A DNA stretch of 64,000 bases from Patescibacteria group bacterium. GTDB taxonomy: Bacteria; Patescibacteriota; Patescibacteriia; JAQUQO01. Under the pieces are notes generated by a model. The model had not been told where the DNA came from and did not search any database. It saw only the letters and a list, made by a program, of their open reading frames with translations. The first letter of the stretch is position 1. Each line of letters begins with the position of its first letter. Of the stretch, positions 191-55,384 are shown piece by piece. The position numbers and the translations under genes were made by a program. The stretch spans positions 528,897-592,896 of the forward strand of contig JAQUQO010000001.1 of assembly GCA_028716045.1 (NCBI GenBank), given 5' to 3'.

Positions 191-222
191 TAGAGACGCA
201 TTGTCATGCGTCTCTACGGGGG
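191..222. repeat. REP-like hairpin repeat (TAGAGACGC-loop-GCGTCTCTACGGGGG)
   Basis: Perfect inverted repeat with conserved GTAGAGAC/GTCTCTACGG ends shared with 5 other copies in window. Confidence 0.6.
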
Positions 223-237
223 AACAAAATCAAAACA

Positions 238-260
238 CCCTTTGATAAAAGGGCGTTTTT
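238..260 (+). terminator. rho-independent terminator-like hairpin (CCCTTT-GATA-AAAGGG) + T6
   Basis: 6-bp stem 238-253 followed by TTTTTT 255-260; precedes repeat cassette copy 1. Confidence 0.35.
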
Positions 261-279
261 TATTTAAAAAATTTTTTGT

Positions 280-384
280 AGAAACAATTCGGGCATTTGG
301 TAGAGACGGGTTTAAAACCCGTCTCTACGGGGATACCAGGGGACGATAAAAGGATTGATGATATTGCATGGTAGAGACCCCGCC
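280..384. repeat. 105-bp composite repeat cassette copy 1 (two REP-like hairpins + spacer)
   Basis: ~95% identical to 3851-3956; contains hairpins 300-332 and 370-405. Confidence 0.8.
300..332. repeat. REP-like hairpin GTAGAGACGGG-TTTAAAA-CCCGTCTCTAC + GGGG
   Basis: Perfect 11-bp stem; identical copy at 3871-3904. Confidence 0.8.
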
Positions 385-405
385 GCAGCGGAATCTCTAT
401 GGGGG
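370..405. repeat. degenerate REP-like hairpin GGTAGAGACCCCGCC...ATCTCTATGGGGG
   Basis: Same GTAGAGAC 5' arm, degenerate 3' arm. Confidence 0.5.
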
Positions 406-529
406 AATACCCCGCATTTGTAAGGTATTTCTCGGATTTATTAAGCCCATATCTTGAAAATTGATAAAATGATAAAATAATAGTGGAAATGCGGTATTAT
501 TGTTTTGTATTATGTGTTGTAAGCTAATC

Positions 530-558
530 TTGACAAAATAGCTAAAATGTGCTATATT
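530..558 (+). promoter_or_regulatory. sigma70-like promoter TTGACA-17nt-TATATT for CDS starting 703
   Basis: TTGACA 530-535, TATATT 553-558, 17-nt spacer; AAGGAG RBS at 691-696. Confidence 0.55.
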
Positions 559-702
559 TAATAGTTAAAAAGAGTATATTTTAACCCCTTTAAATAGTCT
601 CTTTACCTCACTTTAGCGGGCCAAACACGAGTTGACTAAAGTCGGGTAAGCAGATTATTCTGCTGTTTGAAAACAAAAAAATTAATTTACAAGGAGATAA
701 AG

Positions 703-3700
703 ATGAAAAGGATGAAAAGTAATTTTTGGTTGATTTTGGTGTTGCTCGCGCCCTTGGGCTGCGGCAACGGAGAAAAGAGATCCTTCGCTGACGCTCAGGA
801 TGACAATGAGGGTGTCAGTGATGGTGGCGATGTTAACAACAATGACGACGATGACCCTTCGACAGACTCAGGGTCTGATGACGATGCTGGTGTTGAGCCG
901 TCAGACGGCGACGTCCCGATAGATGTCGGGGATGACGATGACGACACGACTTGCGTTCCGAGCAAAGAAATTTGCGACGGAAAGGACAATGACTGCGACG
1001 GCGATACTGACGAAGATTCGGCTTTGGAAATGGGATGTGACAACGACATTTTCTGCGACGGCGTTGAACAATGCCTTGGCGGATTTTGTGTCGTAGAAAT
1101 TGAACCCGAAGATTGCGCTCCTCTTTCGGACGAATGCAATGACGGCGTGTGCGATGAAGCCACCCGCGGTTGCCAAGCGGTTCCCAAAGAAAACGGGACA
1201 CTCTGCAACGCGGATTCTGATGGTTGCACCGAAAACGACTATTGCCAAGACGGTGATTGTCTATCCGGCAAAGCAGTGGATTGTTCGGGAGCGGTACCGG
1301 AAGAAGAAAAGCAATGCAACATCGGTGTCTGCTATTCTGCCGGAAACAATGAGTATGCTTGCGGCAAAGAATCTTTGCCCAACGAAACTCGTTGCGACGC
1401 GGATGGTGACGGCTGTACGGTCGGCGACACCTGCCAAGCCGGTGTCTGCGAAAAAGGACCGGCTCCGGATTGTTCCGAAGCTACGGATGCCTGCAACGCC
1501 GGAACTTGTTTCTCCGCTGGCTCGGAAACATATGAATGCGTTCCGACCCCCATGGAAGACCAAACTCCCTGCGACGCGGATGGTGACGGCTGCACAGTCG
1601 GCGACACCTGCCAAGCGGGAATTTGCGAGAAGGGTTTGCCGGCAGATTGCTCGGGTGTAAATACCCAATGCAAAACCGGTATCTGTATTTCCCAAGGTCA
1701 GGACAAATTCGTCTGCTCCTCTACGTCCAAGAACAACGGCGCGGCCTGTTTGGATAACGACGGCTGCACAGTCGGCGACAACTGCCAAGCGGGAATTTGC
1801 GTGGCGGGAACACCGGCTGACTGCTCGACGTTCACCAATCAGTGCAATGACGGCGTTTGCGAGGAAACGGCTGACCACGTTAACTTTAATTGCGTGGCTC
1901 AATCTAAACCCAACAACACCGCTTGCAATGCGGACTCTAACGGCTGTACAGTCGGCGACACCTGCCAAAACGGGAGTTGCCAAGCCGGAGCGAGCCGCGA
2001 TTGTTCCAAAAAGACCGACGATTGCAATCGCGGTATCTGTGTAGAGGACAGTTCAACTTCATCACACTGCGCGGCTAAGCCGAGGTCTAATGGAACTTCC
2101 TGTGAAGACGGCCAATACTGCACGGTCGGCGATTCCTGCCAAGACGGCGACTGCCAAGCCGGACCGGTGAAGGATTGCTCTCCTCTTTCGGACGAATGCA
2201 ACAACGGAGTGTGCGATGAAACGGCTGACAGTTGTGAAAAGTCGCCGATTAACGAAGGCGGCCTTTGCAATGACGGCGAGATTTGCACCACGACTTCTAC
2301 CTGCCAAAGCGGCGAGTGCAAGGGCGTAGATGACAAAGATGCCGATACTGACACTTTTATTGACAAGGATTGCGGCGGAACGGATTGCGACGACGGCGAC
2401 AACGGGATTTATCCCGGAGCGCTGGACACGGTGGGCGACGGCATTGACCAGAATTGCGACGGCCGAGACGGAGTGGACGCTGACAGCGATACTTATGCGA
2501 GTATCGCTTCCGGCGGAACGGATTGCGATGATGGCAACAACAGTATCCACCCTAACGCAGACGACAATGACACCGACGCGGTTGATGAAAACTGCGACGG
2601 CAAATTTGGCGGCGCGCTGGCGGGCGATGTTGATGCCGACGACTACGCGGCTTTGGGCACAGATGGAGTGACGGTGGTGGACTGCGATGATGATGAAGCT
2701 CTTGCCTATCCTAACAACCCGACCGATAAACTGGACAGTATTGACAACGACTGCGACGGCTGGGATGGGAAAAGTGAAAGCATAAGAGACATCGGCAGAA
2801 CCTACCTACAAATTTCCCTTGACTCCCAAGAAAAAATATGGATACTTGGCGGAAAATGGTTAAGCAACAACAAAGACGGAAATTGGGAAAATGAACAATG
2901 GAATCTAAATATGGCCAGTGATACAGATATGGCCCTTGACTCCTCTGACAACATCCATATTTCCTACCGTTGCGAGCAAGGGCTTTGCTACGCCAAAAGA
3001 GCGCCTGACGAAAGTTTGGAAACCACTATCATTGATAACGACGATCCGCAAACCGGTAAATCTACTTCCATCGCCCTAGACGACGACGGTTATCCACGGA
3101 TTTCTTACCGCGGATATAATGGCGACTTGCGGGAAGCGCGGTGGAACGGGGCAAACTGGGAAATACAAGTGGTACATGCCATTACAGACCTTGATAGAGG
3201 CACATCGCTTGTGATACAGAACAACTTAAGTCGTATTTCATACGAGAGAGTTGGCGCAACAGATGGATTGTGGTTGGCGGAAGAACAAAGTGATAGCAGT
3301 TGGGTTAAAAATAAAATTGACATCACTTATTCTGGTCTTTGGAGTTCAATGGCAGCGGATTCCGGCGGAAAACTCCATATTTCTTCCGGCTATTTCACGG
3401 CTAGCGGTTGGTCTCTTCGTATAACCACCAACGCCAGCGGGGATTGGGCGGGCGAACACGTTGATTTCAATGCCGATTATCCTCGCGGCTGGGCAACCTC
3501 AATGGCCGTGGATTCTAATGGGAAAAGACATGTGTTGTATCTCGCATTCGAAGAGCATAGGGTAATCTATGCTACCGACAAATCCGGAAGTTGGGTCTTA
3601 AGCGTCATCGGAGAATACAAAGATGGTGAAGAAGCTAATTTCATTACAGCCATAACGATTAACTCCGGTAACGAAATCCACGCCGTCTATTTCGGCGACA

Positions 3701-3744
3701 CAGCCCTTGGCGGCCCCTGCGACGGCCTGTGCTATGTGAAGTAA
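703..3744 (+). CDS. large secreted Cys/Asp-rich repeat protein (MopE-like metal-binding motifs; beta-propeller-like C-terminus)
   Basis: ATG 703 with AAGGAG RBS (track start 667 is a TTG). Lipoprotein-like signal LAPLGC. ~9 tandem CxADxDGCTVGDxCQAGxC modules. DCDDGDN..YPGA..CDGxDNDCDG MopE-type motifs. C-terminal ~45-aa repeats ending ISY/HISSGY. Confidence 0.85.
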   Translation: MKRMKSNFWLILVLLAPLGCGNGEKRSFADAQDDNEGVSDGGDVNNNDDDDPSTDSGSDDDAGVEPSDGDVPIDVGDDDDDTTCVPSKEICDGKDNDCDGDTDEDSALEMGCDNDIFCDGVEQCLGGFCVVEIEPEDCAPLSDECNDGVCDEATRGCQAVPKENGTLCNADSDGCTENDYCQDGDCLSGKAVDCSGAVPEEEKQCNIGVCYSAGNNEYACGKESLPNETRCDADGDGCTVGDTCQAGVCEKGPAPDCSEATDACNAGTCFSAGSETYECVPTPMEDQTPCDADGDGCTVGDTCQAGICEKGLPADCSGVNTQCKTGICISQGQDKFVCSSTSKNNGAACLDNDGCTVGDNCQAGICVAGTPADCSTFTNQCNDGVCEETADHVNFNCVAQSKPNNTACNADSNGCTVGDTCQNGSCQAGASRDCSKKTDDCNRGICVEDSSTSSHCAAKPRSNGTSCEDGQYCTVGDSCQDGDCQAGPVKDCSPLSDECNNGVCDETADSCEKSPINEGGLCNDGEICTTTSTCQSGECKGVDDKDADTDTFIDKDCGGTDCDDGDNGIYPGALDTVGDGIDQNCDGRDGVDADSDTYASIASGGTDCDDGNNSIHPNADDNDTDAVDENCDGKFGGALAGDVDADDYAALGTDGVTVVDCDDDEALAYPNNPTDKLDSIDNDCDGWDGKSESIRDIGRTYLQISLDSQEKIWILGGKWLSNNKDGNWENEQWNLNMASDTDMALDSSDNIHISYRCEQGLCYAKRAPDESLETTIIDNDDPQTGKSTSIALDDDGYPRISYRGYNGDLREARWNGANWEIQVVHAITDLDRGTSLVIQNNLSRISYERVGATDGLWLAEEQSDSSWVKNKIDITYSGLWSSMAADSGGKLHISSGYFTASGWSLRITTNASGDWAGEHVDFNADYPRGWATSMAVDSNGKRHVLYLAFEEHRVIYATDKSGSWVLSVIGEYKDGEEANFITAITINSGNEIHAVYFGDTALGGPCDGLCYVK

Positions 3745-3798
3745 TCCCCTTTCTCTCCCTTTGAAAAAGGGAGGTAAGGAGGGATTTAAAAAATCAAA

Positions 3799-3830
3799 AC
3801 ACCCCTGGGTAAAACTCGGGGTGTTTTTTT
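3799..3830 (+). terminator. rho-independent terminator (ACACCCC-loop-GGGGTGT + T7)
   Basis: 7-bp GC stem 3799-3824 then TTTTTTT. Confidence 0.7.
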
Positions 3831-3850
3831 ATTTGGGTTTTGATTTATAC

Positions 3851-3956
3851 AGAAACAATTCAGGCATTTGGTAGAGACGGGTTTAAAACCCGTCTCTACG
3901 GGGATACCGGGGGACGATAAAAGGATTGATGATTCGCATTATGTAGAGACCCCGCC
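3851..3956. repeat. composite repeat cassette copy 2
   Basis: Near-identical to 280-384; lies between convergent genes 703-3744 and 3971-7498. Confidence 0.8.
3871..3904. repeat. REP-like hairpin (identical to 300-332)
   Basis: GTAGAGACGGGTTTAAAACCCGTCTCTACGGGG. Confidence 0.8.
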
Positions 3957-3976
3957 TTGTCGAGACGTCTCTACGG
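3943..3976. repeat. REP-like hairpin GTAGAGACCCCGCC..GAGACGTCTCTACGG overlapping stop codon of 3971-7498 CDS
   Basis: GTAGAGAC/GTCTCTAC arms; minus-strand TAG stop at 3971-3973 lies inside the element. Confidence 0.6.
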
Positions 3977-6900
3977 ACTGCAGGTCATCACATTATCAGT
4001 TATCTCGCAGTTTCTTTTTATACTATTGTTGGCATTGCTATTTGAATCCATGTCAAACATATTTACTACTCCATCATTATCTCCATCTGAACCGCCCAAT
4101 AACACATTAACACATTGGTTTTGCCCCTCTATATTAACACATTTCCCGCCGACAAATTTACAGTCTCCATCTAAAAGGCACATTTTCCTTTCGCCCTCTT
4201 CCTCATAAGCGATTCCCTTACAATAAGGGTCGTCCATATTTGCCAAACCATTACCATCGTTATCAAATTTTCCATCAATACAATTTAATGTTCCCTCAAA
4301 ACAAGTATCGTCGCAAATCCCTTCTACTGGGAAACCAGTGGCCATTTTAGCGCTAAAGCCCACATCGCCAAGAAAATCACAGCGATAAACATTCGCCAGA
4401 TATTGACCAGCGCCGCCTGACATCTGCCAGCAATATTTTGCTCTTGTTTTATCACTCCCTTCCTCTCCTCCTTTTGTCCAAGTATTTCTGTGGACAAATA
4501 TCGGCTTTTGCGGAATCCCAATATCATCGCCATTAACCTTACATTCTTTCAAAAGCCAAAATGCTTCTTCATTTATTGAATCACCCGGCTGGACCGTGTA
4601 TTCCAAATTAGCTTTACCGTCTTCTTCTACACTACCGGAAACCAAGATGTTAGTTGTGCCCATACAAGATTCCCCTGTGGCGCAGTTATAATTGCCAAAA
4701 CAGATATTGCCAGAGATTTTCTCTCCGGTTTCTAACTCCTTCTCCGGACATCTCCCTGGAGTAATAACTTTACACTCCGCCATGCCCGAGGTGACTTTTA
4801 AATTCGCTAGTTTGACTGTAAAAGTATGCAAATGCGTGCCGGGCAAGGCCTGCCCGACATTCTCGCCGTCGCAATAAGCGTCGGTATTTTGGTAATCAGC
4901 ATAGCCATCGTCAACGCGCGCGCAATCCGTTCCACCACCTAAACAACACAACGGCTCAAAAATTCCTCCAGCCGGCGTCACGCGCACGGGCTCAAAACCA
5001 AAACTGGTTTTTATACCAACAAAACTACCAGCCACTGACGGCCCAAAATCAACCCAGCCAATATCCCACGGCGCCCATCCCCACCAGTAAAAATCTCCTT
5101 TGGAAATAAGAGGCTGTTCATTAATGGCAAAAGCCATTTTGGCGCCGTAAATCGGAGCGTCCAAATCCAGCGCCATCTTGCGCAAAGAAATCCAGCCCTC
5201 GCTGGCCGGATAAGCAATTACTTTCGCCCAGCCGCTGATATCGCCGATATTGGTATCGGCCTTGGCCGCAGCCGTCTGCGCTTCCGGAGTAGCGCCATAA
5301 TCAGCGCAGGTCGCGCCTACGCAAATCCAGCCCACGTTTTCGCTCCACATCCAGCCGGACAAAATTCCGTCCGCCGCGATTTTTACGCCATAAGCCGGAC
5401 CGGCGCAGGTATTGGTCGCCAAGTCGCAGTTATTAGCCGAAACCCAACCGACATTTTCGGACCACGCCCAGCCGTAAACATTGCCCTCGCAAGCGTCGCC
5501 CTGACCGTTGCCGTTGGAATCAATTTGTCTTTCCTGCCAGACACGCGGACAATTGTCGCTGATATCCAAAACACCGTCATTATCATAATCGCTGGTACCC
5601 ACGACAAAAAATGAAAAATGATTGATATTAAGCTCACAGACCAAATTCTCATTAAAGCAAACGGCCAGGCTTTCTCTCTGCCAAGTTCCATTGTTGTTCC
5701 AATAAATATCCGCCGAGTTATTAGCCAAAGAATATGGCAAACGGATAGTAACCGCCGAGGAAAAATTATTATCTCCGCCCTTGTGGAATTCGTAAATCTT
5801 ACTCAAGGGTGTTATGCCTTGCGCTTCCAAATTCGCCGGAACAGTTGTTTCGTAAATAGTGACTGTCGTGGCGCTCGCCAAAGCCCCGCTTGGGATATTG
5901 GCTTGCGCTCCGCCGGTAGTGCTTACTGCCCCGCCGGAAATTCTTATAACCGCCGACGCGCTTTCCTCGCCTGCGCAGGAATTGTTAAAATCGCCCGGAC
6001 AGGAATCGCAAACATCGCCAGAAGCGTCGGCGTCGGAATTAAGCTGGTCCGGATTGTAATTAGCCGGGCAATTATCAATGGTGTTATCTCTTAAATCGCC
6101 GTCGGTATCTAAATCGCAAAAATCCCCGAGCCCGTCATTGTCCGCGTCAGCTTGGTCGGGATTGGCGTTAAGTGGGCAGTTATCATTATTATTCAAAACG
6201 CCGTCATTGTCTTTATCAGTATCGCAGGCGTCGCCGGTGCCGTCGCTGTCATTATCAATCTGGTCAGGGTTATAAATATAGGGACAATTGTCAGCTGTGT
6301 TTAAACGGCCGTCGCTATCCCAGTCGGTGTCGCAAACATCGCCCTGACCATCATTGTCCGCGTCAGCTTGGTCGGGATTGGCAACGCTGGGGCAGTTGTC
6401 GCAGACGTCGCCATTACCATCGCCGTCAACATCAAGCTGATTGGCATTGGCGACAGCCGGGCAGTTGTCTCCGTTATCATCCACTCCGTCATTATCAGTA
6501 TCAGCAACTTCGCAGACATTACCAATACCATCGCCATCGGTATCGGCCTGGTCGGGGTTGGCGACTGAAGCGCAATTATCACAATTATTGCCAACACCGT
6601 CGCCATCGGCATCTTCCTGATTGGCGTTGGGATAATTGGGACAGTTATCGCAGACACTACCTCGGCCATCATTGTCCGCGTCAGCTTGGTCGGGATTGGC
6701 AATGCTGGGGCAGTTGTCGCAGGCGTCGCCGGTGCCGTCGCCGTCAACATCAAGTTGATTGGCATTGGCAACAGCAGGGCAGTTGTCTAAACTATCAGCC
6801 ACGCCATCACCATCCACATCTAAATAGTAGACCTCTATTTCATTCAAATAAGCGTAAGTTCCCGAATCCAAATCCGTCACTTTAAAATATCTGGCATTAA

Positions 6901-7498
6901 CCACGGAAGTAAAATAAATCTCTTTCAAACCGCCCGCCGGCACTTGGCCGCCGGAGTTCGGAGAAGGAACCAATTGCCAGTCGCCATCCCACCCGTCCGT
7001 GGTGTTCAACGAATACCATAATTTAAAAGCGGTGTATAAGTTATAAGTGTTTCTTAAAATAATTTTATTCACGGGACGCGCTTGCGGCATCTTCACAACC
7101 ACGATTGCCGGTTCATTCGCCTCCCGCCAGTAATCATTGACATTGTTAGCAATGGCTCCGTCAATAAGATTGCCGGGAGCGTAAGAAACGGCACCGGCGG
7201 GTCCGCTCCAACCAATAACGGTACCGCCCGCCTTTTTAACGTTCACCATCGTGCCGTCGGTGGTAAAATCGTATTTAACAAAAGAATCAGCTGTCTGCGC
7301 TTCCGCTTGGCCGATACCAAAAAACCCCCACACATTTTGCCAATACAAAATTGAAAGCAGGGGTAGAATTAAAATCAGGGCAAAAAGAAAACTGTAAAAA
7401 ATTTTCTTCCCCGCCTGAAACGGCGCCGGCTTAATCCCGAATAATCGGGACTGCCAAATCACCCTTTTGAGTAAAGAAAAAATCCACTTTTTATGCAT
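3971..7498 (-). CDS. giant surface protein: signal/TM anchor, F5/8 type C (discoidin) domain, ~12 thrombospondin type-3 Ca-binding repeats, GWxWSENVGW repeats, Cys-rich C-terminus
   Basis: N-term hydrophobic segment then AEAQ. YFKV..NEIEVYY discoidin signature. Repeated DxDxDGxGDxCDNCPxxxNxxQxD modules. Confidence 0.85.
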   Translation of the reverse strand: MHKKWIFSLLKRVIWQSRLFGIKPAPFQAGKKIFYSFLFALILILPLLSILYWQNVWGFFGIGQAEAQTADSFVKYDFTTDGTMVNVKKAGGTVIGWSGPAGAVSYAPGNLIDGAIANNVNDYWREANEPAIVVVKMPQARPVNKIILRNTYNLYTAFKLWYSLNTTDGWDGDWQLVPSPNSGGQVPAGGLKEIYFTSVVNARYFKVTDLDSGTYAYLNEIEVYYLDVDGDGVADSLDNCPAVANANQLDVDGDGTGDACDNCPSIANPDQADADNDGRGSVCDNCPNYPNANQEDADGDGVGNNCDNCASVANPDQADTDGDGIGNVCEVADTDNDGVDDNGDNCPAVANANQLDVDGDGNGDVCDNCPSVANPDQADADNDGQGDVCDTDWDSDGRLNTADNCPYIYNPDQIDNDSDGTGDACDTDKDNDGVLNNNDNCPLNANPDQADADNDGLGDFCDLDTDGDLRDNTIDNCPANYNPDQLNSDADASGDVCDSCPGDFNNSCAGEESASAVIRISGGAVSTTGGAQANIPSGALASATTVTIYETTVPANLEAQGITPLSKIYEFHKGGDNNFSSAVTIRLPYSLANNSADIYWNNNGTWQRESLAVCFNENLVCELNINHFSFFVVGTSDYDNDGVLDISDNCPRVWQERQIDSNGNGQGDACEGNVYGWAWSENVGWVSANNCDLATNTCAGPAYGVKIAADGILSGWMWSENVGWICVGATCADYGATPEAQTAAAKADTNIGDISGWAKVIAYPASEGWISLRKMALDLDAPIYGAKMAFAINEQPLISKGDFYWWGWAPWDIGWVDFGPSVAGSFVGIKTSFGFEPVRVTPAGGIFEPLCCLGGGTDCARVDDGYADYQNTDAYCDGENVGQALPGTHLHTFTVKLANLKVTSGMAECKVITPGRCPEKELETGEKISGNICFGNYNCATGESCMGTTNILVSGSVEEDGKANLEYTVQPGDSINEEAFWLLKECKVNGDDIGIPQKPIFVHRNTWTKGGEEGSDKTRAKYCWQMSGGAGQYLANVYRCDFLGDVGFSAKMATGFPVEGICDDTCFEGTLNCIDGKFDNDGNGLANMDDPYCKGIAYEEEGERKMCLLDGDCKFVGGKCVNIEGQNQCVNVLLGGSDGDNDGVVNMFDMDSNSNANNSIKRNCEITDNVMTCSP

Positions 7499-10471: not shown

Positions 10472-12787
10472 TTAGGGGCAGTCTGTCTCTAAAATTACTC
10501 CGCGACTGCGAAGCTCCGCTATGTTCACACCTTGAGCCGCACAATCAATGGGATTGTATCTTATGTCCACCTCATCGTCATTATCAATACCAGAATTGCT
10601 CACGAGCGGCGATATATCGCTTATTCGATTATAATCAAGCCAAAGCGTTGTCAGTGCAGTAAGGTTTGACAATGGTGAGATGTCGCTTACCCCGTTGCCC
10701 CAAAGGTCAAGTATTGTCAGTGCAGTAAGGTTTGACAATGGCGAAATATCGCCTACTTGGTTGACCCTAAGGTAAAGCGTTGTCAGCGCAGTGAGGGTTG
10801 ATAATGGTGAGATATCGCTTACCTCGTTGCCCCAAAGGTCAAGTATTGTCAGCGCAGTGAGGTTTGACAATGGCGAGATGTCGCTTATTTGGTTGTTCTT
10901 AAGGTCAAGATCTGTCAGCGCAGTGAGGTTTGACAATGGTGAGATGTCGCTTATTTGGTTGCCCCAAAGGTCAAGTATTGTCAGCGCAGTGAGGTTTGAC
11001 AATGGCGAAATATCGCCTACTTGGTTGACCCTAAGGTAAAGCATTGTCAGTGCAGTAAGGTTTGACAACGGCGAAATATTGCTTATCTGGTTGTCCCAAA
11101 GGTAAAGCATTGTCAGTGCAGTAAGGTTTGACAACGGCGAAATATCGCTTATTTGGTTGGACAGAAGATTAAGTGTTGTCAGCGCAGTGAGGTTTGACAA
11201 TGGCGAGATGTCGCTTATTTGGTTGTTCTTAAGGTCAAGATCTGTCAGCGCAGTAAGGTTTGACAACGGTGAGATGTCGCTTATTTGGTTGGACCAAAGG
11301 TTAAGCAATGTCAGTGCAGTAAGGCATTCTATTCCTCCAAGGTATTGGATATCTTTATCTCCAGCATCAAGAAATGTCCGGTCTTTAACGTCTAAATAAT
11401 AAATGCCGCCAGAAAGCTTGCCAATAGCGTCCCGCACCGCCCGCTCAAGGTTTGGATCAGTAAAACTTATGACACCTTTACATTGGTCTGGGATATCCTG
11501 TTCGCAGGTATACGATTGAATGTTGCAGAACTCGCCCGCGGGACAATCCGCATCATCCGTGCACTCCACACAAATATTTCCTATACAGTAAGCATCTCCT
11601 CCTACGCAGGTACCGCAACTTCCTCCGCAACCATCATCGCCACACTCTTTACCGGAACAATCCGGTTCCAAGGGAGCAACACTGCAATATAACCCCGCCG
11701 GATTTGCTTCGAGCAAGCAAATTACCTCCCCCGTGTTTTGGCACTCTCCTTCGCCCGCAACACACTCTTCACCAATACTGGGAATATCATTGTCTATTTT
11801 GCCATCGCAATCATTGTCTTTGCCGTCGCAGAGTTCCTCGCCCGGCGGCAAAGCAACAGCGTCGCAGACGATTGACTTTTTGTCTAGCGAACAGATGTAT
11901 TCACCCCAAACGCGGCAATCGCTTAAGCCGTCGCTGCATTGGTCGCCCTTGCCGACTTCTTGCGCAGTCGGAAGGAAACCATTGTCCGCCACCTCATCGC
12001 AGTCATTATCTTTTTCATCACACAGCTCCTCGGCCCCCGGATAAACGGTTTTATCCTTGTCATCGCAATCGCCGTTTTTGACAGTAACCCCATCTTCGTC
12101 TTCATCGCGGTCAGAGTATTTGGCGTTGTATTCGTCAATGAACTTTTTGCCGGCGGTAAACTTTCCTCCCCACGCTTTGCCCTTAGAATCAAAGTCAACG
12201 TCTTCGCCATATTTAGGTCCATAACCGAAGTAAACCCAACTATAATTATCATACTCATCTTTAGGAGCGGGTCCTTTGCGAATACCAAAATGAAGGTGAG
12301 GTTCATTGTCGCCATTTTCATCATCTAAAACGCCATTACAATAAGCCACCCTACCATGAGGTGGCTTACCTCCGCTATGCCCCACATAACCAATAATTTC
12401 TCCTTTTTTGACAACCCCGCTTAACCTTGGTTTATATCCTTCGCGATTTGTCATATGGCCATATACTGAAGTTATTTTACCCCCATCCAGCAATGTATGC
12501 TCTACCACCACGACCATGCCATAACAAGTATGAGCTCCAGAGACAATACCCGTGATAATTTTCCCATTGCCAATTGCTCTCACGGGAGTTAAGGGTGATC
12601 TTTTGTCATCTTCGCCCAAATGTCGAGGCCAGCAACATCCAAAAACACGACCAAAGAATGAACCAGGATCATAGTTCGATAAAGGATATCCCAAACTGTC
12701 TGTTATTTCCGGTTCTTCAGAATAAGTATTTTTGGTATAACCGTAAACAGCAAAAAAAACAATTCCAATCAATATCAACCTTTTCAT
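10472..12787 (-). CDS. secreted multidomain protein: M23 peptidase domain + MopE-like Cys-rich modules + ~11 internalin-like 22-aa leucine-rich repeats
   Basis: Signal peptide. M23 motifs (GHM..., GHSGG, PHLHFGIR). CDxKDNDCDE/CDGKDNDCDG motifs. Tandem LTALTxLxLxxNQISDISPLSNL repeats (periodic DNA 10640-11340). Confidence 0.85.
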   Translation of the reverse strand: MKRLILIGIVFFAVYGYTKNTYSEEPEITDSLGYPLSNYDPGSFFGRVFGCCWPRHLGEDDKRSPLTPVRAIGNGKIITGIVSGAHTCYGMVVVVEHTLLDGGKITSVYGHMTNREGYKPRLSGVVKKGEIIGYVGHSGGKPPHGRVAYCNGVLDDENGDNEPHLHFGIRKGPAPKDEYDNYSWVYFGYGPKYGEDVDFDSKGKAWGGKFTAGKKFIDEYNAKYSDRDEDEDGVTVKNGDCDDKDKTVYPGAEELCDEKDNDCDEVADNGFLPTAQEVGKGDQCSDGLSDCRVWGEYICSLDKKSIVCDAVALPPGEELCDGKDNDCDGKIDNDIPSIGEECVAGEGECQNTGEVICLLEANPAGLYCSVAPLEPDCSGKECGDDGCGGSCGTCVGGDAYCIGNICVECTDDADCPAGEFCNIQSYTCEQDIPDQCKGVISFTDPNLERAVRDAIGKLSGGIYYLDVKDRTFLDAGDKDIQYLGGIECLTALTLLNLWSNQISDISPLSNLTALTDLDLKNNQISDISPLSNLTALTTLNLLSNQISDISPLSNLTALTMLYLWDNQISNISPLSNLTALTMLYLRVNQVGDISPLSNLTALTILDLWGNQISDISPLSNLTALTDLDLKNNQISDISPLSNLTALTILDLWGNEVSDISPLSTLTALTTLYLRVNQVGDISPLSNLTALTILDLWGNGVSDISPLSNLTALTTLWLDYNRISDISPLVSNSGIDNDDEVDIRYNPIDCAAQGVNIAELRSRGVILETDCP

Positions 12788-13434: not shown

Positions 13435-13585
13435 ATTGCACCTCCATTTTAGTTTTTATTGTTAATGAATTATCAACGTCCAAAAAGTATTTTTAGTATA
13501 ACAAAATAACAAAATAAAAACCAACCTTTACGGCATCCCGCCCTTTCATTATTCTCCCGAGTTCCAGAGTTAAGGGCAGGGTCTC

Positions 13586-13614
13586 TTGACAAAATCATCA
13601 AAATTTGCTATAAT
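13586..13614 (+). promoter_or_regulatory. consensus promoter TTGACA-17-TGcTATAAT (extended -10)
   Basis: TTGACA 13586-13591; TATAAT 13609-13614; AGGAGG RBS 13649-13654 before ATG 13659. Confidence 0.6.
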
Positions 13615-13658
13615 TTAAAATTAAGCTAATGAATTAACAACCAACAAAGGAGGAAAAA

Positions 13659-16654: not shown

Positions 16655-16725
16655 GCGGAATTAGTACAGTGGTAGTATGTCGGCTTCCCAAGCCGAAGAT
16701 GCGGGTTCGATTCCCGTATTCCGCT
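16655..16725 (+). tRNA. tRNA-Gly (anticodon CCC)
   Basis: Cloverleaf folds by hand: acceptor GCGGAAT/ATTCCGC, U8, D-loop with GG, anticodon loop UUCCCAA, T-loop TTCGATT, discriminator U; no encoded CCA. Confidence 0.75.
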
Positions 16726-16847: not shown

Positions 16848-16920
16848 GCCGAGATAGCTCAATTGGTAGAGCAACGGTATCGTAAACCGTAGGTTGGAGG
16901 TTCGATTCCTCTTCTCGGCT
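16848..16920 (+). tRNA. tRNA-Thr (anticodon CGU); CCA encoded at 16921-16923
   Basis: Acceptor GCCGAGA/TCTCGGC, D-arm GCTC/GAGC, anticodon loop AUCGUAA, T-loop TTCGATT. Confidence 0.8.
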
Positions 16921-19268: not shown

Positions 19269-19889
19269 TTAAATATTGAAAAAATCTTTAATTTTTTTCA
19301 ATGATTCTCCGGCTCGCAAAACTTTAATTTTCTTGCCGGTAAAATCAATAATGGTTGACGGTCTCTTGCCTTTTAATTTTCCGCCGTCCAAAATAAGGTC
19401 GGGCTTGAATTTTCTTTTCTTAAAAATTTTATAAACACCCGCGGCAGTGTCCGGTGTTATTTTTCCTGAAATGTTGGCGGAAGTGGAGGTAAGCGGACGC
19501 TTTAATAACCGCGCGAGAGTCAACGCCGTTTTGTCATCGGGCATTCTTATCCCCACTTTCTTTCTCCCACCGCTAACCCATTCTGGCACAATTTTCCTTT
19601 TCTTCAGCACCAAAGTTATCGCTCCGGGCAAAAAATGTTCAGCAACTCGCCGCGCTGTTTCTGTAAGATACGCCCACCGACTAATATCCTTCTTTGAACC
19701 CACAGAAATAAGCAAAGGTTTCTTAAAATTTCGTCCTTTTATTTTATAAACTTTCTCTACCGCTTTTTTATTAAAAATATCCGCCCCGAGACCGTATAGA
19801 GTATCTGTCGGATAAACAATCGCCCCGCCACGCCGCAAAACCGCAACCGCTTCTTCGATAGATTTTTTTGTAATTTTTTTAATTATCAT
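19269..19889 (-). CDS. tsaC: L-threonylcarbamoyladenylate synthase (YrdC/Sua5 family)
   Basis: VYPTDTLYGLGAD motif; start chosen at internal Met (MIIKKITKK); ORF extends to 19949. Confidence 0.7.
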   Translation of the reverse strand: MIIKKITKKSIEEAVAVLRRGGAIVYPTDTLYGLGADIFNKKAVEKVYKIKGRNFKKPLLISVGSKKDISRWAYLTETARRVAEHFLPGAITLVLKKRKIVPEWVSGGRKKVGIRMPDDKTALTLARLLKRPLTSTSANISGKITPDTAAGVYKIFKKRKFKPDLILDGGKLKGKRPSTIIDFTGKKIKVLRAGESLKKIKDFFNI

Positions 19890-31000: not shown

Positions 31001-31126
31001 AAAAACAACTTGACCCCGAAATTGTCCCCGTTTGGACGGGGACGCAACGGGGCAGGACGAGGATTTTTGAGTAACTTAAAATAATCAGCACACTCCTCCG
31101 GTAAGCGCTATGGCGCCTCAAAAAAC

Positions 31127-31155
31127 TTGACAAAAATGCCCTAAAATGCTATAAT
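31127..31155 (+). promoter_or_regulatory. consensus promoter TTGACA-17-TATAAT
   Basis: TTGACA 31127-31132; TATAAT 31150-31155. Confidence 0.6.
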
Positions 31156-31181
31156 AAACAAGTAAATAATAATACAAAATT

Positions 31182-44364: not shown

Positions 44365-44497
44365 ACATTTAATATTTTATATATTTATAAATCAATGGCC
44401 TATTCTTTACAATTTTATCTTAAAAAATTCTTCTACTAATAAATTTTATTTATTCCAAATACTCCCCCAACGCTTCTTGCCACCTCCTTATCTATTT

Positions 44498-44619
44498 TGT
44501 CTTTGCGACCCCGAGATTGACTTCGGCGAGCTCAGTCGAGCCGTCGAGGGGGAAGCAATCTCTATAATACGCGTAGATTGCTTCGTCGTCCCGAATTCTA
44601 GGGACTCCTCGCAATGACA
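44498..44619. mobile_element. 122-bp MITE-like element copy 1 (11-bp TIR TGTCTTTGCGA...TCGCAATGACA) abutting rfbD stop codon
   Basis: ~95-bp core near-identical to 45470-45592; internal 10-bp-stem hairpin GAAGCAATCT...AGATTGCTTC. Confidence 0.55.
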
Positions 44620-45462
44620 TTATTGTTTTAAATACTCCCTCAATGCCTCCCTCCAACTCCTCATCTCCGGCAATTTGGTGTTTAACAAAACAGAAAATTT
44701 GGGACGGCGGGCGAGGCGGGGAAATTTATCGGAATTGACCGGTTCAACTTTTATATCTATATTTTTTATTTTAAAAATCTCTTTGGCAAATTCGTACCAC
44801 GTGCAGGCATCGTCGTTTGTCGCGTGATAAATACCCCACGGATAACCACCATCAACTATTTCTTTCGTCCTCTTCGCTAAATCTAAAGCATAAGTGGGAC
44901 TGGCATATTCCTCGTCAACGACTTCCAGCTTATCACGCTCCCCTGCCAATTGCAACATTAAATCAACAAAACTTTTCTTGGCCTCGGCGCTGGAAGCGGG
45001 ATTGCCGAATAATTTACAAGTACGCAAAATATAGTATCTATCACCATATTTTTGAACCTCCCGTTCGCCCATCAATTTGCTCTCACCATATTTATTAACC
45101 GGACTCGGTTCGTCATTTTCCTTATATCCCTCCTCCTTACTGCCGTCAAAAACGTAATCACTGCTATAATGGACGAAAACAGAACCAACTTCTTTGGCTA
45201 TTTTTGCCAAATATCCCGGCGCCTCGCCATTTACTTTTTTAGCAATGGCAAATCCTTCTTCTTCCTCGCATTTATCAACGGCATTATAAGCCGCGGCGTT
45301 AATAATTAAATCAGGTGTTAATTTTGTAATCTTTTCTCGCGCTTGCTTTTCATCGGTGATATCAATTTCTTCTCTATCCCATAAAAAAAGTTCCTCGCCG
45401 GAAAAAACTTCCGCCAAGTACTGCCCCAGCATTCCTTTCGCGCCGATGATTAGTATTTTCAT
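44620..45462 (-). CDS. rfbD: dTDP-4-dehydrorhamnose reductase (RmlD)
   Basis: MKILIIGAKGMLG Rossmann; YxxxK; 280 aa. Confidence 0.8.
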   Translation of the reverse strand: MKILIIGAKGMLGQYLAEVFSGEELFLWDREEIDITDEKQAREKITKLTPDLIINAAAYNAVDKCEEEEGFAIAKKVNGEAPGYLAKIAKEVGSVFVHYSSDYVFDGSKEEGYKENDEPSPVNKYGESKLMGEREVQKYGDRYYILRTCKLFGNPASSAEAKKSFVDLMLQLAGERDKLEVVDEEYASPTYALDLAKRTKEIVDGGYPWGIYHATNDDACTWYEFAKEIFKIKNIDIKVEPVNSDKFPRLARRPKFSVLLNTKLPEMRSWREALREYLKQ

Positions 45463-45469
45463 AGTATTT

Positions 45470-45592
45470 TGTCATTGCGACCCCGAGCTTGACTTCGGCG
45501 AGCTCAGTCGAGTCGTCGAGGGGGAAGCAATCTCTAATACGTGTAGATTGCTTCGCTCATCTTCAACAAGTTCGGATTCGCTCGCAATGACA
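45470..45592. mobile_element. 123-bp MITE-like element copy 2 (perfect 11-bp TIR TGTCATTGCGA/TCGCAATGACA) 8 nt upstream of rfbD start
   Basis: Same orientation as copy 1; divergent ~30-nt segment near right end. Confidence 0.55.
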
Positions 45593-49378: not shown

Positions 49379-49567
49379 TTAAAAATCTTCTTTAATTATC
49401 AGGGTAATAATAGCACTGGCCGCCGAGATAATCAAGACAAAATGGGGATTGAAAAAATTAACAACAAAACCCTTGATAAAAAATTCTAAAATCATCAAAG
49501 CCGCCCACAAAATAAAAGAAGCATAAAATAATTCTTCAAAAAATATTTTGACAAATCCCCTATTCAT
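49379..49567 (-). CDS. small membrane protein (62 aa)
   Basis: Two hydrophobic segments; overlaps next gene by 8 nt. Confidence 0.3.
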   Translation of the reverse strand: MNRGFVKIFFEELFYASFILWAALMILEFFIKGFVVNFFNPHFVLIISAASAIITLIIKEDF

Positions 49568-51008: not shown

Positions 51009-51009
51009 T

Positions 51010-52608: not shown

Positions 52609-52617
52609 GGAATCTAT

Positions 52618-53190
52618 TTAAATACCTTGGCTAAATAAGCTCACGATGGCAAAAATCACAGCGAGATAAAGCGTGCCGGCCGAAATGGAAGAGAGCGACT
52701 GCATTTGAAATAATAATCCAAAAAGAAGAAACAAAATCCCGAAAAATTGGCAAAACATTTTTAATTTCCCCCAAATCTCCGCCTGGATAACCAATCCTCT
52801 TTTATGCTTTAACCACCCACCGATTATCAGCACCGCTTCAATAGCGATAATTGCAAATGCAAGATAAAAAGAAAGATAACGCAAAACAATGATAAAAACC
52901 AGCGAACCGATGAGTAATTTATCCGCTAAGGGGTCATAAATTTTCCCCCACTCGGTGACTTCTTCGCGCACGCGCGCCATAGACCCATCCAACATATCGG
53001 TAAAAGCGGTAAAGATATATAGCGGGATTCCCCAGCTAAAATTTTCTTTAACTATCAGCCAAACCACCAAGGGCGTTAAAATAAACCTCACCATAGTAAT
53101 ATGGTTTGGCTTAATGAATTTTGGAATTATCGGATTAAAAAACCAGCGAAAAACCAAATCTTGAGGATAAATTTGTGGTCCTTTCCACAT
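52618..53190 (-). CDS. CDP-alcohol phosphatidyltransferase family protein
   Basis: D-x2-DG-x2-AR...G-x3-D-x3-D motif (DMLDGSMAR...DPLADKL). Confidence 0.75.
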   Translation of the reverse strand: MWKGPQIYPQDLVFRWFFNPIIPKFIKPNHITMVRFILTPLVVWLIVKENFSWGIPLYIFTAFTDMLDGSMARVREEVTEWGKIYDPLADKLLIGSLVFIIVLRYLSFYLAFAIIAIEAVLIIGGWLKHKRGLVIQAEIWGKLKMFCQFFGILFLLFGLLFQMQSLSSISAGTLYLAVIFAIVSLFSQGI

Positions 53191-53231
53191 AAGCTGAATT
53201 ATGCTAAACTAACTTAAAATATCCGAAAATC

Positions 53232-55334
53232 ATGAAGAAACCCTTATTATATCTTACCATTTTTTGCGTAATTCTTCCAGCCATTCTAATTCTTAATATT
53301 TTTTTCTGGCAAAATACGGTAGTCGGGATAATTGGCGGCTGTTTCTATCTTTTACTCAACGGCTTTTTAGCCGGTGTTTTATTTTTAAATAAAGAAAATC
53401 CGGGCTGGTCAATTTTTTATGGGCTACTTCTATTTTTATGCCTTAATTCCTTGGGGGGCGCGATTATTTATTTTTTTTACGAGTTAAATAATTTTGTAAT
53501 CTCCGCTCTTTTAATCTTAACTCCGGTCGCATTACTGGCCGCAAAAAAAATACAAGTTGCAAGTTTTCCGCCAGGGACCGATAAGTCTTCGGCTGACAAG
53601 TTTCAAATTTTCCGCCAGGGACTGACAAGTTTGAAATTAAAAAATTTGTATTTACCAGCCCTATATCTAACGCTGATTGCCATTAATTCTTATCTGCTTT
53701 TCGCGCACCGAACCGACTTGGCTATCCGTTCGCCTTGGGAGCTTTTGCCTAAATCATTTTTTATAATTTATTTTCTCACCACGGCAATTCTCCTCGTTTT
53801 CATTCTGCGCAATAAAACTAAATTATCGCTTTTATTTATTTCCATCCACTCTCTTTTTTCTCTCGCCGTTGCTCTTATAATTTACAAATTGGGCTACGGC
53901 TACGACCCCTTCATCCACGAAGCAACGGAAAAATTTATTCTGAACAACGGTTTTATCTCACCCAAGACACCGTATTATCTCGGACAATATACTTTGGTTA
54001 TTTATTTAACTAAAATCCTGTCGCTCCCCCACGAATGGATTGACAAAATTCTCGTCCCCCTCTTTTACGCCGTTTATCTGCCGGCTACCGTCTATTTTTC
54101 TTTCGCAAAAAATTCCGCTAAAAAGTTTTTGCCTCTAATTATTTTAACCATACCTTTCGGGGTGTTTCTCTTAACCACTCCCCAGGGTTTAGCCAATCTG
54201 CTCGTATTGCTTATTGCTCTTTTATCTTATAAATACACATCGGCTAAAGAAAACATCAACTGGTCAATTCTCCTTATTCTGGCTCTGACCGCCGCCGCCG
54301 TTCACCCCTTGGCCGGCATACCGGCGCTATGTTTTGTAGCGCTTCTGTTCTTGATAAGCCGGAATTATAAAAAATTGTCTTTATTTTTTGGTCTTCTCTC
54401 GGCCATCGCCCTGCCGGCTATTTTTTATCTGCAATCCGTGGTATCAAATAACCTTTCAACCGTCATTAGATTCTCTCCGCCGAATATCCTGAATGACTGG
54501 CAGTGGCCGGTGCTGGTCAGAAAATTTGATGCGGTTTTAGATTTAGTTTATTTGTATGCTTGGAATTTTAATTTTTGGTTCATAGCGCTGGCCGCCGTTG
54601 GTTTTTGGCTTCTTTTAAGGCAACAAAAAAATACTTCGGTAAAAATTTTCGTTTATTCTTTTATAATTCTAATCATAAATTATCTGCTCCTGACTTTGTT
54701 TTTTCAATTCCAAGGGCTAATCGCTTACGAACGGCAAAATTACGCCTCCAGAATTTTAGAGTTGAGTTTTTATTTTCTCATCCCATTTTATCTTTGGACT
54801 TTTGACTGGCTAGCCCAAAAAATTACCGAAAAAAATATCTTTTACAAATCATTTTTTATTTTAATTTTAACCATTGCCATAATCAGCTCTTTTTACGTTT
54901 CTTACCCGCGCCAGGACGATTATGACGACGCCCGCGGATATAATTTGAGCCAAGCTGACCTCAGCGCCGTTCATTATATAAAAAATACAGCTGGCGGAGA
55001 TTACATAGTACTTGCCAATCAAATGGTGGCGGCCGGGGCCTTAAAAGAATTTGGCTTTGCTAAGTATTATCAAACTTCCCGCGGAGAGATATTTTATTAT
55101 CCTATTCCTACCGGCAGCCCGCTTTACGATTATTATTTAAAAATGGTTTACGAAAAAGCGGCACGGAAAACAATGATAGAAGCTATGGATTTAGTCGGAG
55201 TTGACGCCGGGTTTTTAGTGGTGAATGATTACTGGCACCGCTCGGCCATCACCGTAGAGGAAGCCAAGTCCTCGGCCGATAATTTTGTAAAATTAGACAA
55301 CGGTAAAATTTACGTTTTTGAGTATAAGAGATAA
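53232..55334 (+). CDS. large polytopic membrane protein (700 aa), putative glycan polymerase/transferase
   Basis: More than 14 TMs and a C-terminal soluble domain; no definitive motif. Confidence 0.5.
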   Translation: MKKPLLYLTIFCVILPAILILNIFFWQNTVVGIIGGCFYLLLNGFLAGVLFLNKENPGWSIFYGLLLFLCLNSLGGAIIYFFYELNNFVISALLILTPVALLAAKKIQVASFPPGTDKSSADKFQIFRQGLTSLKLKNLYLPALYLTLIAINSYLLFAHRTDLAIRSPWELLPKSFFIIYFLTTAILLVFILRNKTKLSLLFISIHSLFSLAVALIIYKLGYGYDPFIHEATEKFILNNGFISPKTPYYLGQYTLVIYLTKILSLPHEWIDKILVPLFYAVYLPATVYFSFAKNSAKKFLPLIILTIPFGVFLLTTPQGLANLLVLLIALLSYKYTSAKENINWSILLILALTAAAVHPLAGIPALCFVALLFLISRNYKKLSLFFGLLSAIALPAIFYLQSVVSNNLSTVIRFSPPNILNDWQWPVLVRKFDAVLDLVYLYAWNFNFWFIALAAVGFWLLLRQQKNTSVKIFVYSFIILIINYLLLTLFFQFQGLIAYERQNYASRILELSFYFLIPFYLWTFDWLAQKITEKNIFYKSFFILILTIAIISSFYVSYPRQDDYDDARGYNLSQADLSAVHYIKNTAGGDYIVLANQMVAAGALKEFGFAKYYQTSRGEIFYYPIPTGSPLYDYYLKMVYEKAARKTMIEAMDLVGVDAGFLVVNDYWHRSAITVEEAKSSADNFVKLDNGKIYVFEYKR

Positions 55335-55349
55335 AAATAAAACCTGCTT

Positions 55350-55384
55350 GTAGAGAAGACACTCTATGGCGTGTCTCTACGGCG
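55350..55384. repeat. REP-like hairpin GTAGAGAAGACAC-TCTATGG-CGTGTCTCTACGGCG
   Basis: Same GTAGAGA...TCTCTACGG termini as copies at 191-405 and 3871-3976. Confidence 0.6.

Follow-up and report, generated by a model that had tools for sequence, protein, structure and literature searches.

Introduction

Double-foot REPs, which carry GT[AG]G at the 5' foot and C[TC]AC at the 3' foot, are the partners of the TnpA_REP/RAYT proteins of subclass 2.4 (Quentin et al. 2018, PMC6006769), a subclass that corresponds to RAYT group 4 of Bertels et al. 2017 (PMC5581495). The proteins have the motifs NH[IFV]H, WQ and YIxNNP, with a REP in-frame between HuH and Y, and the double-foot REP could derive from an inverted dimer via a central deletion (PMC6006769). 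Binding and cleavage of single-stranded REPs have been demonstrated for E. coli TnpA_REP only (cited in PMC6006769), and none of the literature found reports experimental activity of any subclass-2.4 RAYT. Among GTAG-type REPs, the GTAG termini often provide the TAG stop of flanking ORFs, and the elements are found chiefly on the downstream side of ORFs (Di Nocera et al. 2013, PMC3733652).

Here we describe six hairpins in a 64-kb window, that is, the whole stretch of DNA analyzed, and conclude with high confidence that they are double-foot REPs of a REPtron with a subclass-2.4 TnpA_REP (group-4 RAYT). They share with the described subclass-2.4 elements both feet on one long hairpin, a RAYT with NH[IFV]H, WQ and YIxNNP-type motifs, REPs that flank the tnpA_REP gene and also sit in-frame inside it, and a scatter over many phyla (PMC6006769). 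Nothing essential differs from the subclass-2.4 surveys, but the host is an uncultured MAG outside them, and its REPs form direct pairs, have arms of one particular variant, GTAGAGAC(G), and in part belong to a larger duplicated module.

The REP/BIME system of E. coli and its RayT (YafM; subclass 2.2; 4ER8) is similar in having short extragenic palindromes, a GTAG guide, locations mostly downstream of genes and a REPtron arrangement, with REPs flanking the single-copy HuH/Tyr enzyme they belong to. In E. coli, however, GTAG is unpaired and at one foot only, stems are bulged and pairing is inverted (BIMEs), whereas the GTAG noted here in a preliminary description as an E. coli-like flank is indeed present, yet pairs with CTAC at the stem base. 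The E. coli RayT gene also lacks the internal REP of the RAYT described below, and the protein shows distant similarity at best (phmmer E = 1e-5 to 7e-8 with subclass-2.4 RAYTs of other genomes). In Pseudomonas fluorescens, REPINs (Bertels and Rainey 2011, PMC3116915) are likewise non-autonomous, and a single-copy RAYT is believed to spread them, but they consist of two inverted REPs in a long hairpin, while the unit here is one perfect palindrome and doublets run head-to-tail.

The GTAG-tagged REP superfamily (Di Nocera, De Gregorio, Rocco 2013, PMC3733652) resembles our elements in its GTAG terminus, its convergent or unidirectional inter-ORF sites, termini that donate TAG stops and occasional in-frame insertion in genes; it differs in that GTAG is an unpaired tag at one end and head-to-tail dimers are absent or rare in most genomes surveyed. 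The subterminal hairpins of IS200/IS605 elements (IS608, ISDra2) also show a size of ~20-25 nt, a 5' guide tetranucleotide and a Y1 HuH transposase acting on single-stranded DNA. Those hairpins, however, bound a mobile unit with tnpA and/or tnpB, whereas the ones described here are solitary and the enzyme gene is apparently not co-moving.

Six hairpins in the window

The preliminary description had placed six hairpins with arms GTAGAGAC and GTCTCTACGG in this DNA. All six exist, with the arms present at six of six places and on the + strand throughout:

190/191-219, + strand: REP copy 1, ATAGAGACGCATTGTCATGCGTCTCTACGG; perfect 11-bp stem, 4-nt loop, foot G changed to A; fold -11.5 kcal/mol, z = -7.9; covariance model 34.4 bits, E = 1.3e-9
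300-330, + strand: REP copy 2, GTAGAGACGGGTTTAAAACCCGTCTCTACGG; perfect 13-bp stem, unit 1 of a direct doublet; fold z = -7.3; covariance model 37.1 bits, E = 1.5e-10
371-402, + strand: REP copy 3, GTAGAGACCCCGCCGCAGCGGAATCTCTATGG; decayed, unit 2 of the doublet; fold z = -2.3; covariance model 14 bits, E = 0.016
3871-3901, + strand: REP copy 4, identical in sequence to copy 2; perfect hairpin
3943-3976, + strand: REP copy 5, GTAGAGACCCCGCCTTGTCGAGACGTCTCTACGG; decayed; fold z = -1.3; covariance model 25.8 bits
55350-55382, + strand: REP copy 6, GTAGAGAAGACACTCTATGGCGTGTCTCTACGG; decayed; fold z = -1.4; covariance model 24.1 bits

The units are 29-34 nt long. In detail the arms read GTAGAGAC(G) and (C)GTCTCTAC, then GG, and enclose a variable, self-complementary core. 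The 5' foot is GTAG and the 3' foot CTAC in five of six copies each, so that a GTAG start and a CTACGG end, previously ascribed to every copy, hold for most: copy 1 starts with ATAG (A at 190) and copy 3 ends with CTATGG, its foot being CTAT. The pattern GTAGAGA-N-TCTCTAYGG matched five times in the window and never in 100 shuffles; copy 1 escapes it because of its ATAG start.

Folding as DNA gave perfect hairpins for copies 1, 2 and 4 (z = -7.3 to -7.9) and decayed ones for copies 3, 5 and 6 (z = -1.3 to -2.3). Copy 3 is a degenerate form of a perfect copy, GTAGAGACCCCGCTGCGGCGGGGTCTCTACAG, located outside the window (locus L128, 19521-19551), and the core of copy 6 is related to the perfect copy GTAGAGACACGCCATGGCGTGTCTCTAC within the RAYT gene.

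A covariance model trained only on elements of other genomes returned exactly these six window sites (E = 1.5e-10 to 0.016) and no further site in the full 64 kb, each copy scoring higher on the + strand. Ten hairpins were found in the 78.7 kb examined of the 812-kb contig; REPs classically number more than 100 per genome. Rfam yielded two tRNAs only at gathering thresholds and, with relaxed E-values around the hairpins, two sub-threshold chance matches only. A full-text literature search for the arm sequences returned primer noise only.

Copy 1 starts 19 nt past the stop codon of a methyltransferase gene (169-171), and copy 6 starts 15 nt past the stop of gene 53232-55334; both have a terminator downstream, that of copy 1 at 232-259. 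Copy 4, read on the - strand, lies in the 3' UTR of gene 3971-7498, ahead of a bidirectional terminator. All copies had been called intergenic, which is correct for five, while copy 5 overlaps the final 6 nt of gene 3971-7498 (- strand), a thrombospondin-repeat gene of 1175 aa. The stop codon of this gene does fall inside a hairpin, as had been observed: CTA at 3971-3973 of copy 5 is its TAG stop.

A larger duplicated module and neighboring terminators

Four of the copies lie within a composite intergenic module, and intrinsic terminators adjoin the hairpins:

226-480, + strand: composite repeated intergenic module of a bidirectional terminator, REP 2, a 40-nt spacer, REP 3 and ~80 nt (GGGGAATAC..TTTCTCGGATTTATTAAGCCCATATCTTGAAAATTGATAAAATGATAAAAT)
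3790-3976, + strand: repeat of the module's left part, with terminator, REP 4, spacer and REP 5
232-262, no strand assigned: hairpin resembling an intrinsic terminator, each strand having a T-run, directly downstream of REP 1
3800-3830, no strand assigned: bidirectional intrinsic terminator common to convergent genes, with REPs 5 and 4 between the - strand gene stop and it
55402-55432, no strand assigned: intrinsic terminator hairpin AAAACCCCGCGTTATTAGCGCGAGGTTTTTT, downstream of REP 6

Block 226-395 matches 3790-3960 with 94% identity over 90 nt (repeat family D10). The left part of the module thus recurs at 3790-3976, between the convergent genes 703-3744 (+) and 3971-7498 (-). L128 19445-19570, beyond the window, repeats the right part, and there the ~80-nt right flank of copy 3 also adjoins the 19521 copy. 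Copies 2+3 and 4+5 are therefore non-independent parts of a duplicated intergenic block of ~170-250 bp, and since they share flanks they were probably born by duplication of the larger block and not by independent REP mobilization. Copies 1 and 6 stand alone, and their flanks, those of the RAYT-internal copy and those of the two copies upstream of the RAYT gene are unrelated.

Both doublets (300/371 and 3871/3943) are direct, and no inverted BIME/REPIN unit is formed. Being head-to-tail, the pairs do not strictly qualify as BIMEs or REPINs; of the "REP/BIME-like family" proposed earlier, the REP part stands through the link to a RAYT and the BIME part does not. Head-to-tail doublets with 63-74 nt spacing occur in four other genomes among the matches listed. 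A conserved composite doublet element was considered and rejected, as the spacers between the units differ from genome to genome.

The same palindrome in other genomes

Scanning one genome for each species gave at least 120 loci. The ~30-nt palindrome, its arms invariant and its core covarying, is present in at least 120 other species from at least a dozen phyla; the 9-nt arm GTAGAGACG is nearly invariant over at least a dozen phyla among the matches listed. Element length was 30 nt in 104 and 31 nt in 33 of the 150 strand-wise matches among those listed, a sharp peak where chance would spread lengths across the 23 allowed gap lengths. Perfect 14-bp stems were formed by 89 of these 150 elements, with 98 distinct cores, and the four core pairs showed 106 double-changed cells compared with 24.9 in shuffles (98.8% of cells paired), both counts again among the matches listed. 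On the same basis, ORFs of 150 aa or more contain 33% of elements, compared with 83% of random positions.

RayT-like ORFs of subclass 2.4 were identified at 16 of 120 loci among the matches listed (family HMM E = 1e-28 to 1e-87). In 15 of these the hairpin is in-frame in the ORF, read as VETxxxxSLR or RRDAxxxVST, or at most ~200 nt away; at the remaining locus it lies 1.6 kb from the RAYT.

A cognate RAYT gene on the same contig

The suggestion of a cognate transposase elsewhere in the genome is supported. Covariance-model matches in locus L125 led to a 213-aa RAYT on the same contig, ~2.3 kb past window position 64000 (record JAQTRY010000001.1, 18130-18771, corresponding to L125 5789-6430), with one hairpin in-frame and two upstream; a search of the 64-kb window and two other loci found no RAYT. 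The protein has the HuH motif MPNHIH, the W motif TWQ and the Tyr motif NYIISNP, the last with one departure (S for N) from the YIxNNP consensus; both the HuH and the Tyr residues needed for catalysis are thus retained in the sequence. The internal REP, GTAGAGACACGCCATGGCGTGTCTCTAC, occupies L125 6132-6160, is read in frame as VETRHGVSL(Q) and is placed between MPNHIHGII and TWQ, i.e. between the HuH and Tyr motifs. The two upstream hairpins (L125 5677-5756) lie 33-112 nt before the start.

A family HMM of 16 like proteins matched this RAYT with E = 6e-72. The match to NCBIfam NF047646 (E = 3e-14, 53 bits) is under the curated cut-off of 80 bits, and Pfam Y1_Tnp gives 18.8 bits against a cut-off of 23 bits, so Y1_Tnp alone would miss the gene. 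In the PDB it matches only 4ER8, the TnpA_REP of E. coli, with E = 0.18 and an alignment over the HuH and Tyr motifs. By its motifs and in-frame REP the gene is a TnpA_REP of subclass 2.4 (RAYT group 4) whose activity is predicted from sequence. The genome thus holds a RAYT flanked by its REPs, as in a REPtron.

Alternative explanations

The identification as double-foot REPs is carried by the sequence family, core covariation that preserves the hairpin, extragenic preference, a RAYT in the same genome and linkage to RAYTs in 16 unrelated genomes among the matches listed. It also agrees with the dispersed, mainly extragenic copies that have unrelated flanks (copies 1, 6 and those associated with the RAYT). 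Could the hairpins instead be mainly RNA elements, selected as 3'-UTR stem-loops for mRNA stability or for tuning translation termination of surface-protein and neighbor genes, with a merely historical RAYT link? A stop codon precedes and an intrinsic terminator follows REPs 1 and 6 and also, on the - strand, REPs 5 and 4; REP 5 overlaps a stop codon, REP 6 begins 15 nt past one, and PMC5581495 and PMC3733652 cite REP effects on translation and on the stability of mRNAs. However, copies 2 and 3 have a terminator upstream and a promoter-like box downstream and are therefore probably in no mRNA. Half of the six copies have decayed to folds no more stable than those of shuffled sequence, evidence against strong purifying selection on the structure, and diverse cores with invariant arms, together with insertion in the RAYT gene, fit recognition at the DNA level better. 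We regard a primary role as RNA elements as unlikely.

It is far less probable that the hairpins form no autonomous short-repeat family and are just parts of a single larger segment, an intergenic duplication that comprises terminator, two hairpins and promoter region. The match of 226-395 to 3790-3960 and the recurrence of the right flank of copy 3 at the L128 19521 copy would suit such a segment, so that this proviso of the preliminary description applies to copies 2-5 only; copies 1 and 6, the RAYT-internal copy and the two upstream of the RAYT have unrelated flanks, the 30-nt unit stands alone in more than 100 other species among the matches listed, and the idea is already contradicted for at least four copies. 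A role in transcription termination, also suggested previously, would suit GC-containing stem-loops at gene 3' ends. No copy is followed by a T-run (3' flanks GGGGGAAC, GGGGATAC, GGCGTTAG), and a canonical terminator is already present at each gene end, 20-150 nt from the REP; termination by the REP itself is therefore unlikely, and that the hairpins are rho-independent terminators or attenuators is highly improbable. Perfectly symmetric arms might also point to a dimeric DNA-binding regulator that uses the palindromes as operators, or to inverted repeats that arose by chance, but we give this almost no credence: compensatory core changes preserve an uninterrupted hairpin where the spacer of operator half-sites needs no pairing, shuffles gave no matches, and there is physical linkage to RAYT genes here and in 16 genomes among the matches listed.

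Other identities were rejected. A CRISPR array is contradicted by irregular spacing and the absence of cas genes, and integron attC sites by the lack of RYYYAAC/GTTRRRY ends. Against IS200/IS605 ends or MITEs, copies 1 and 6 share no homology past the hairpin, and neither tnpA nor tnpB adjoins.

Proposed mechanism and significance

For the double-foot REPs, the RAYT would be a HuH/Tyr single-strand DNA endonuclease-ligase. By analogy with the biochemistry of E. coli TnpA_REP and IS608, it may bind hairpins folded in single-stranded DNA (the lagging-strand template of the replication fork being the most plausible site), read the GTAG foot, and cleave and rejoin, thereby seeding new REP copies. 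These could then decay through mutation (copies 3, 5 and 6); alternatively, REP copies may spread with their flanks via segmental duplication (copies 2-5).

Judging from position alone, the REPs of three genes, being between the stop codon and the intrinsic terminator, would be transcribed into 3' UTRs. REP hairpins impede 3' exonucleases, and REPs at most ~15 nt from a stop codon interfere with translation termination. The previously suggested mRNA stabilization fits the position of the REPs.

A bolder idea is that REPs are more than passive RAYT products. The ~250-bp block, with its bidirectional terminator, two head-to-tail REPs and promoter-like region, might be a reusable regulatory cassette copied between surface-protein loci by recombination at REPs, and the nearly invariant 9-nt arm might be a fixed RAYT recognition code from recent inter-phylum transfer. 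The 63-74 nt spacing of head-to-tail doublets in four other genomes would hint at a preferred, so far undescribed, doublet geometry. We consider this rather doubtful.

REP palindromes break short-read assemblies, and one independent contig terminates exactly at the RAYT-internal REP. They also make spurious or extended ORFs and donate stop codons, so annotators gain from recognizing them. A sequence-only guess at a REP and its transposase was verifiable here from local context, and an odd-looking repeat is explained as a textbook REPtron. A REP family with its RAYT partner is of an already-known kind, and this is an ordinary though tidy example, through which the hosts of subclass-2.4 RAYTs gain an uncultured lineage.

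Six hairpins of the window and their relatives

The preliminary description reported six REP-like hairpins in the window, and all six are present, each reading on the + strand:

190-219, +, REP copy 1, aTAGAGACGCATTGTCATGCGTCTCTACGG
300-330 and 3871-3901, +, REP copies 2 and 4 (identical), GTAGAGACGGGTTTAAAACCCGTCTCTACGG
371-402, +, REP copy 3, GTAGAGACCCCGCCGCAGCGGAATCTCTATGG
3943-3976, +, REP copy 5, GTAGAGACCCCGCCTTGTCGAGACGTCTCTACGG
55350-55382, +, REP copy 6, GTAGAGAAGACACTCTATGGCGTGTCTCTACGG

A gapped pattern matched five of the six copies and had no match in 100 shuffles; copy 1 was missed solely because its first base is A. Folding had been suggested as a check on RNA structure, and when folded as single-stranded DNA three of the six (copies 1, 2 and 4) are perfect hairpins (fold z = -7.3 to -7.9), with copies 3, 5 and 6 degenerate (z = -1.3 to -2.3). 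A covariance model built from foreign elements only recovered exactly these six copies and no other window site, each scoring higher on the + strand.

One genome per bacterial species was scanned with GTAGAGAC-N8-30-GTCTCTACGG, giving at least 120 loci. Hosts among the matches listed include Bacteroidota, Chloroflexota, Cyanobacteria, Acidobacteriota, Planctomycetota, Patescibacteria, Ignavibacteriota, Spirochaetota, Gammaproteobacteria and others. The scan required a 3' GG, and the frequency of this GG is a biased estimate since the pattern itself demanded it. By our estimate, chance would give some hundreds of matches to this 18-base pattern with 23 gap lengths, evenly spread over lengths, whereas the lengths peak sharply at 30 nt (104/150 strand-wise matches among those listed) and 31 nt (33/150). 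In a separate, relaxed, single-strand count of 150 elements among the matches listed, 89 have an uninterrupted 14-bp stem, 98 different core sequences occur and TT is the commonest 5' flank. Across 62 non-redundant elements 98.8% of cells overall are paired, and double (compensatory) changes at the four variable stem pairs number 106, versus 24.9 in shuffles. Among the matches listed, ORFs of 150 aa or more contain only 33% of the elements; for random positions from these loci the figure is 83%. Head-to-tail doublets 63-74 nt apart, as in the window, were seen in three other genomes (L056 329/402, L116 2739/2813, L064 3700/3763) and at 130 nt in a fourth (L107 2828/2958); no conserved spacer separates the units across these four loci.

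The cognate transposase

A REP-associated tyrosine transposase (RAYT, TnpA_REP) was sought over the loci listed with E. coli RayT as phmmer seed and then an iterated HMM. RayT-like ORFs occur in 16 of 120 loci among the matches listed (E = 1e-28 to 1e-87), and in 15 of these the hairpin lies in-frame inside the ORF or no more than about 200 nt from its ends; the remaining locus, L095, has it 1.6 kb away. The in-frame hairpin follows the HuH motif MPNHIHxII and reads VETxxxxSLR in one orientation and RRDAxxxVST in the other. Against NCBIfam NF047646 (REP-associated tyrosine transposase) the proteins score E = 1e-13 to 1e-15, short of its cut-off. Two in-frame REP insertions occur in some Bacteroidales RAYT genes (L029 5704-6351, L074 4135-4905), the first shortly behind the N-terminal beta-strand region and the second behind the HuH motif; in L029 there is, in addition, a truncated second RAYT copy (2115-2438).

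A cognate transposase elsewhere in the genome had been proposed, and one lies on the same contig. In JAQTRY010000001.1 (GCA_028711565.1) the window reads as the reverse strand, and its flanks there (loci L125 and L128) extend the sequence to 78.7 kb:

L125 5789-6430 (JAQTRY010000001.1 18130-18771), about 2.3 kb past window position 64000, intact RAYT/TnpA_REP of subclass 2.4, 213 aa

Its sequence runs MFDLFQNKYRIQSTRLEDWDY ... MPNHIHGII ... NSVETRHGVSLQ ... TWQPLYYDHIIRD ... NYIISNPEKW. It matches the family HMM at E = 6e-72 and NF047646 at E = 3e-14, and the one PDB entry that it matches is 4ER8 (E. coli TnpA_REP), with the HuH and Tyr motifs in alignment. The foreign-element covariance model found further REP copies at L128 19521-19551 and L125 6132-6160, with weaker matches at L125 5677-5756; the L125 sites fall within and just upstream of the ORF. 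The internal VETRHGVSL is encoded by an in-frame REP, GTAGAGACACGCCATGGCGTGTCTCTAC, and two hairpins, one GTAGGGAC-armed and one a decayed GTAGAGAC, lie 33-112 nt upstream of the start. Copy 6 is a degenerate relative of the RAYT-internal REP, as is copy 3 of the L128 copy. An independently assembled Logan contig of the same population (SRR22315508_110090, L126 1-33) begins exactly at the RAYT-internal REP, an indication that short-read assemblies break at the palindrome or repeat.

Relation to known families

TnpA_Y1 subclass 2.4, which corresponds to Bertels's group 4, has the motifs NH[IFV]H, WQ and YIxNNP, occurs abundantly in Cyanobacteria and Bacteroidetes and scattered elsewhere, and is associated with long canonical or 'double foot' REPs (5' GT[AG]G plus 3' C[TC]AC); it is unique in having REPs inserted in-frame, between HuH and Y, into its tnpA_REP gene (Quentin et al. 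2018, PMC6006769). Group 4 RAYTs are known from 61 species in 17 classes (Bertels et al. 2017, PMC5581495). The hairpins and RAYT described here agree with subclass 2.4 in all testable features, and the window hairpins therefore belong to this already described double-foot family. The observation of the preliminary description is confirmed and, of its REP/BIME-like reading, the REP part is supported. Since the doublets are direct, the element is, strictly speaking, neither a BIME nor a REPIN.

Local arrangement

Copies 2+3 and 4+5 form direct doublets whose starts are 71-72 nt apart; a duplicated block (226-395 and 3790-3960; 94% identity over 90 nt) encloses them together with a bidirectional intrinsic terminator. 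Copies 2-5 probably spread together with their flanks; the flanks of copies 1 and 6 are unrelated. The roughly 80 nt on the right-hand side of copy 3 (403-480) recur beside the L128 copy (19445-19520, -), in each case upstream of a gene reading on the window + strand. This segment contains a promoter-like TTGAAA-N16-AATAAT box and so may be a promoter region common to both sites.

Three times a stop codon is followed first by one or more REPs and then by an intrinsic terminator:

gene ending at 171, REP 1, terminator 232-259
gene 53232-55334, REP 6, terminator near 55402-55432
gene 7498-3971 (-), REPs 5 and 4, terminator 3821-3803 (-)

The last gene encodes a thrombospondin-repeat protein (1175 aa) and, as claimed earlier, its stop codon is the CTA of copy 5. 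TAG stop codons are often supplied by GTAG REP ends, and REPs lie mainly downstream of ORFs, with head-to-tail dimers uncommon (Di Nocera et al. 2013, PMC3733652). That the REP is itself the terminator was rejected: no T-run directly follows any of the six window copies, and separate intrinsic terminators are present. Copies 2 and 3 are probably untranscribed, since a terminator precedes them and a promoter-like box (530-558) follows. A strong promoter-like box, TCTTGACAAAAT...TGCTATAAT (extended -10), was seen upstream of several genes (528-568, 13584-13624, 31125-31165).

The window has other repeats. A 72-nt intergenic repeat unrelated to the REP family, TATTTTGTCTTTGCGACCCCGAGATTGACTTCGGCGAGCTCAGTCGAGCCGTCGAGGGGGAAGCAATCTCTA, occurs at 44493-44564 and 45465-45536 (96% identical), flanking an RmlD-like gene (44620-45462, -, 280 aa). 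Units in the surface-protein genes are a 66-nt LRR, a 69-nt thrombospondin type 3, a 177-nt Cys-rich unit with a MopE-type motif and a 153-nt unit.

10542-11435, 6005-6787, 1193-2180 and 62902-63656, tandem coding repeats in large surface-protein genes
16655-16725 and 16848-16920, +, two tRNA genes, the sole Rfam matches in the window at gathering thresholds

Possible mechanism and role

A repeat family and its structure-preserving variation are established, as is the family's physical linkage, here and in 16 other genomes, to an intact HuH/Tyr gene. By analogy with E. coli TnpA_REP and IS608 (summarised in PMC6006769), the RAYT would recognise the folded hairpin and GTAG foot on single-stranded DNA, and would cleave and rejoin hairpin DNA to give new REP copies, which would later decay. 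Over 79 kb, all eight copies of judgeable orientation share one direction (two-sided p ~0.03 by our calculation, assuming ~6 independent events), and GC skew of the + strand is negative throughout the window except the first 4 kb. Both are consistent with strand-biased insertion at the replication fork, for which eight copies are far too small a sample to be proof. The positions fit a putative 3'-UTR role of these REPs, which would protect mRNA or interfere with termination near stop codons.
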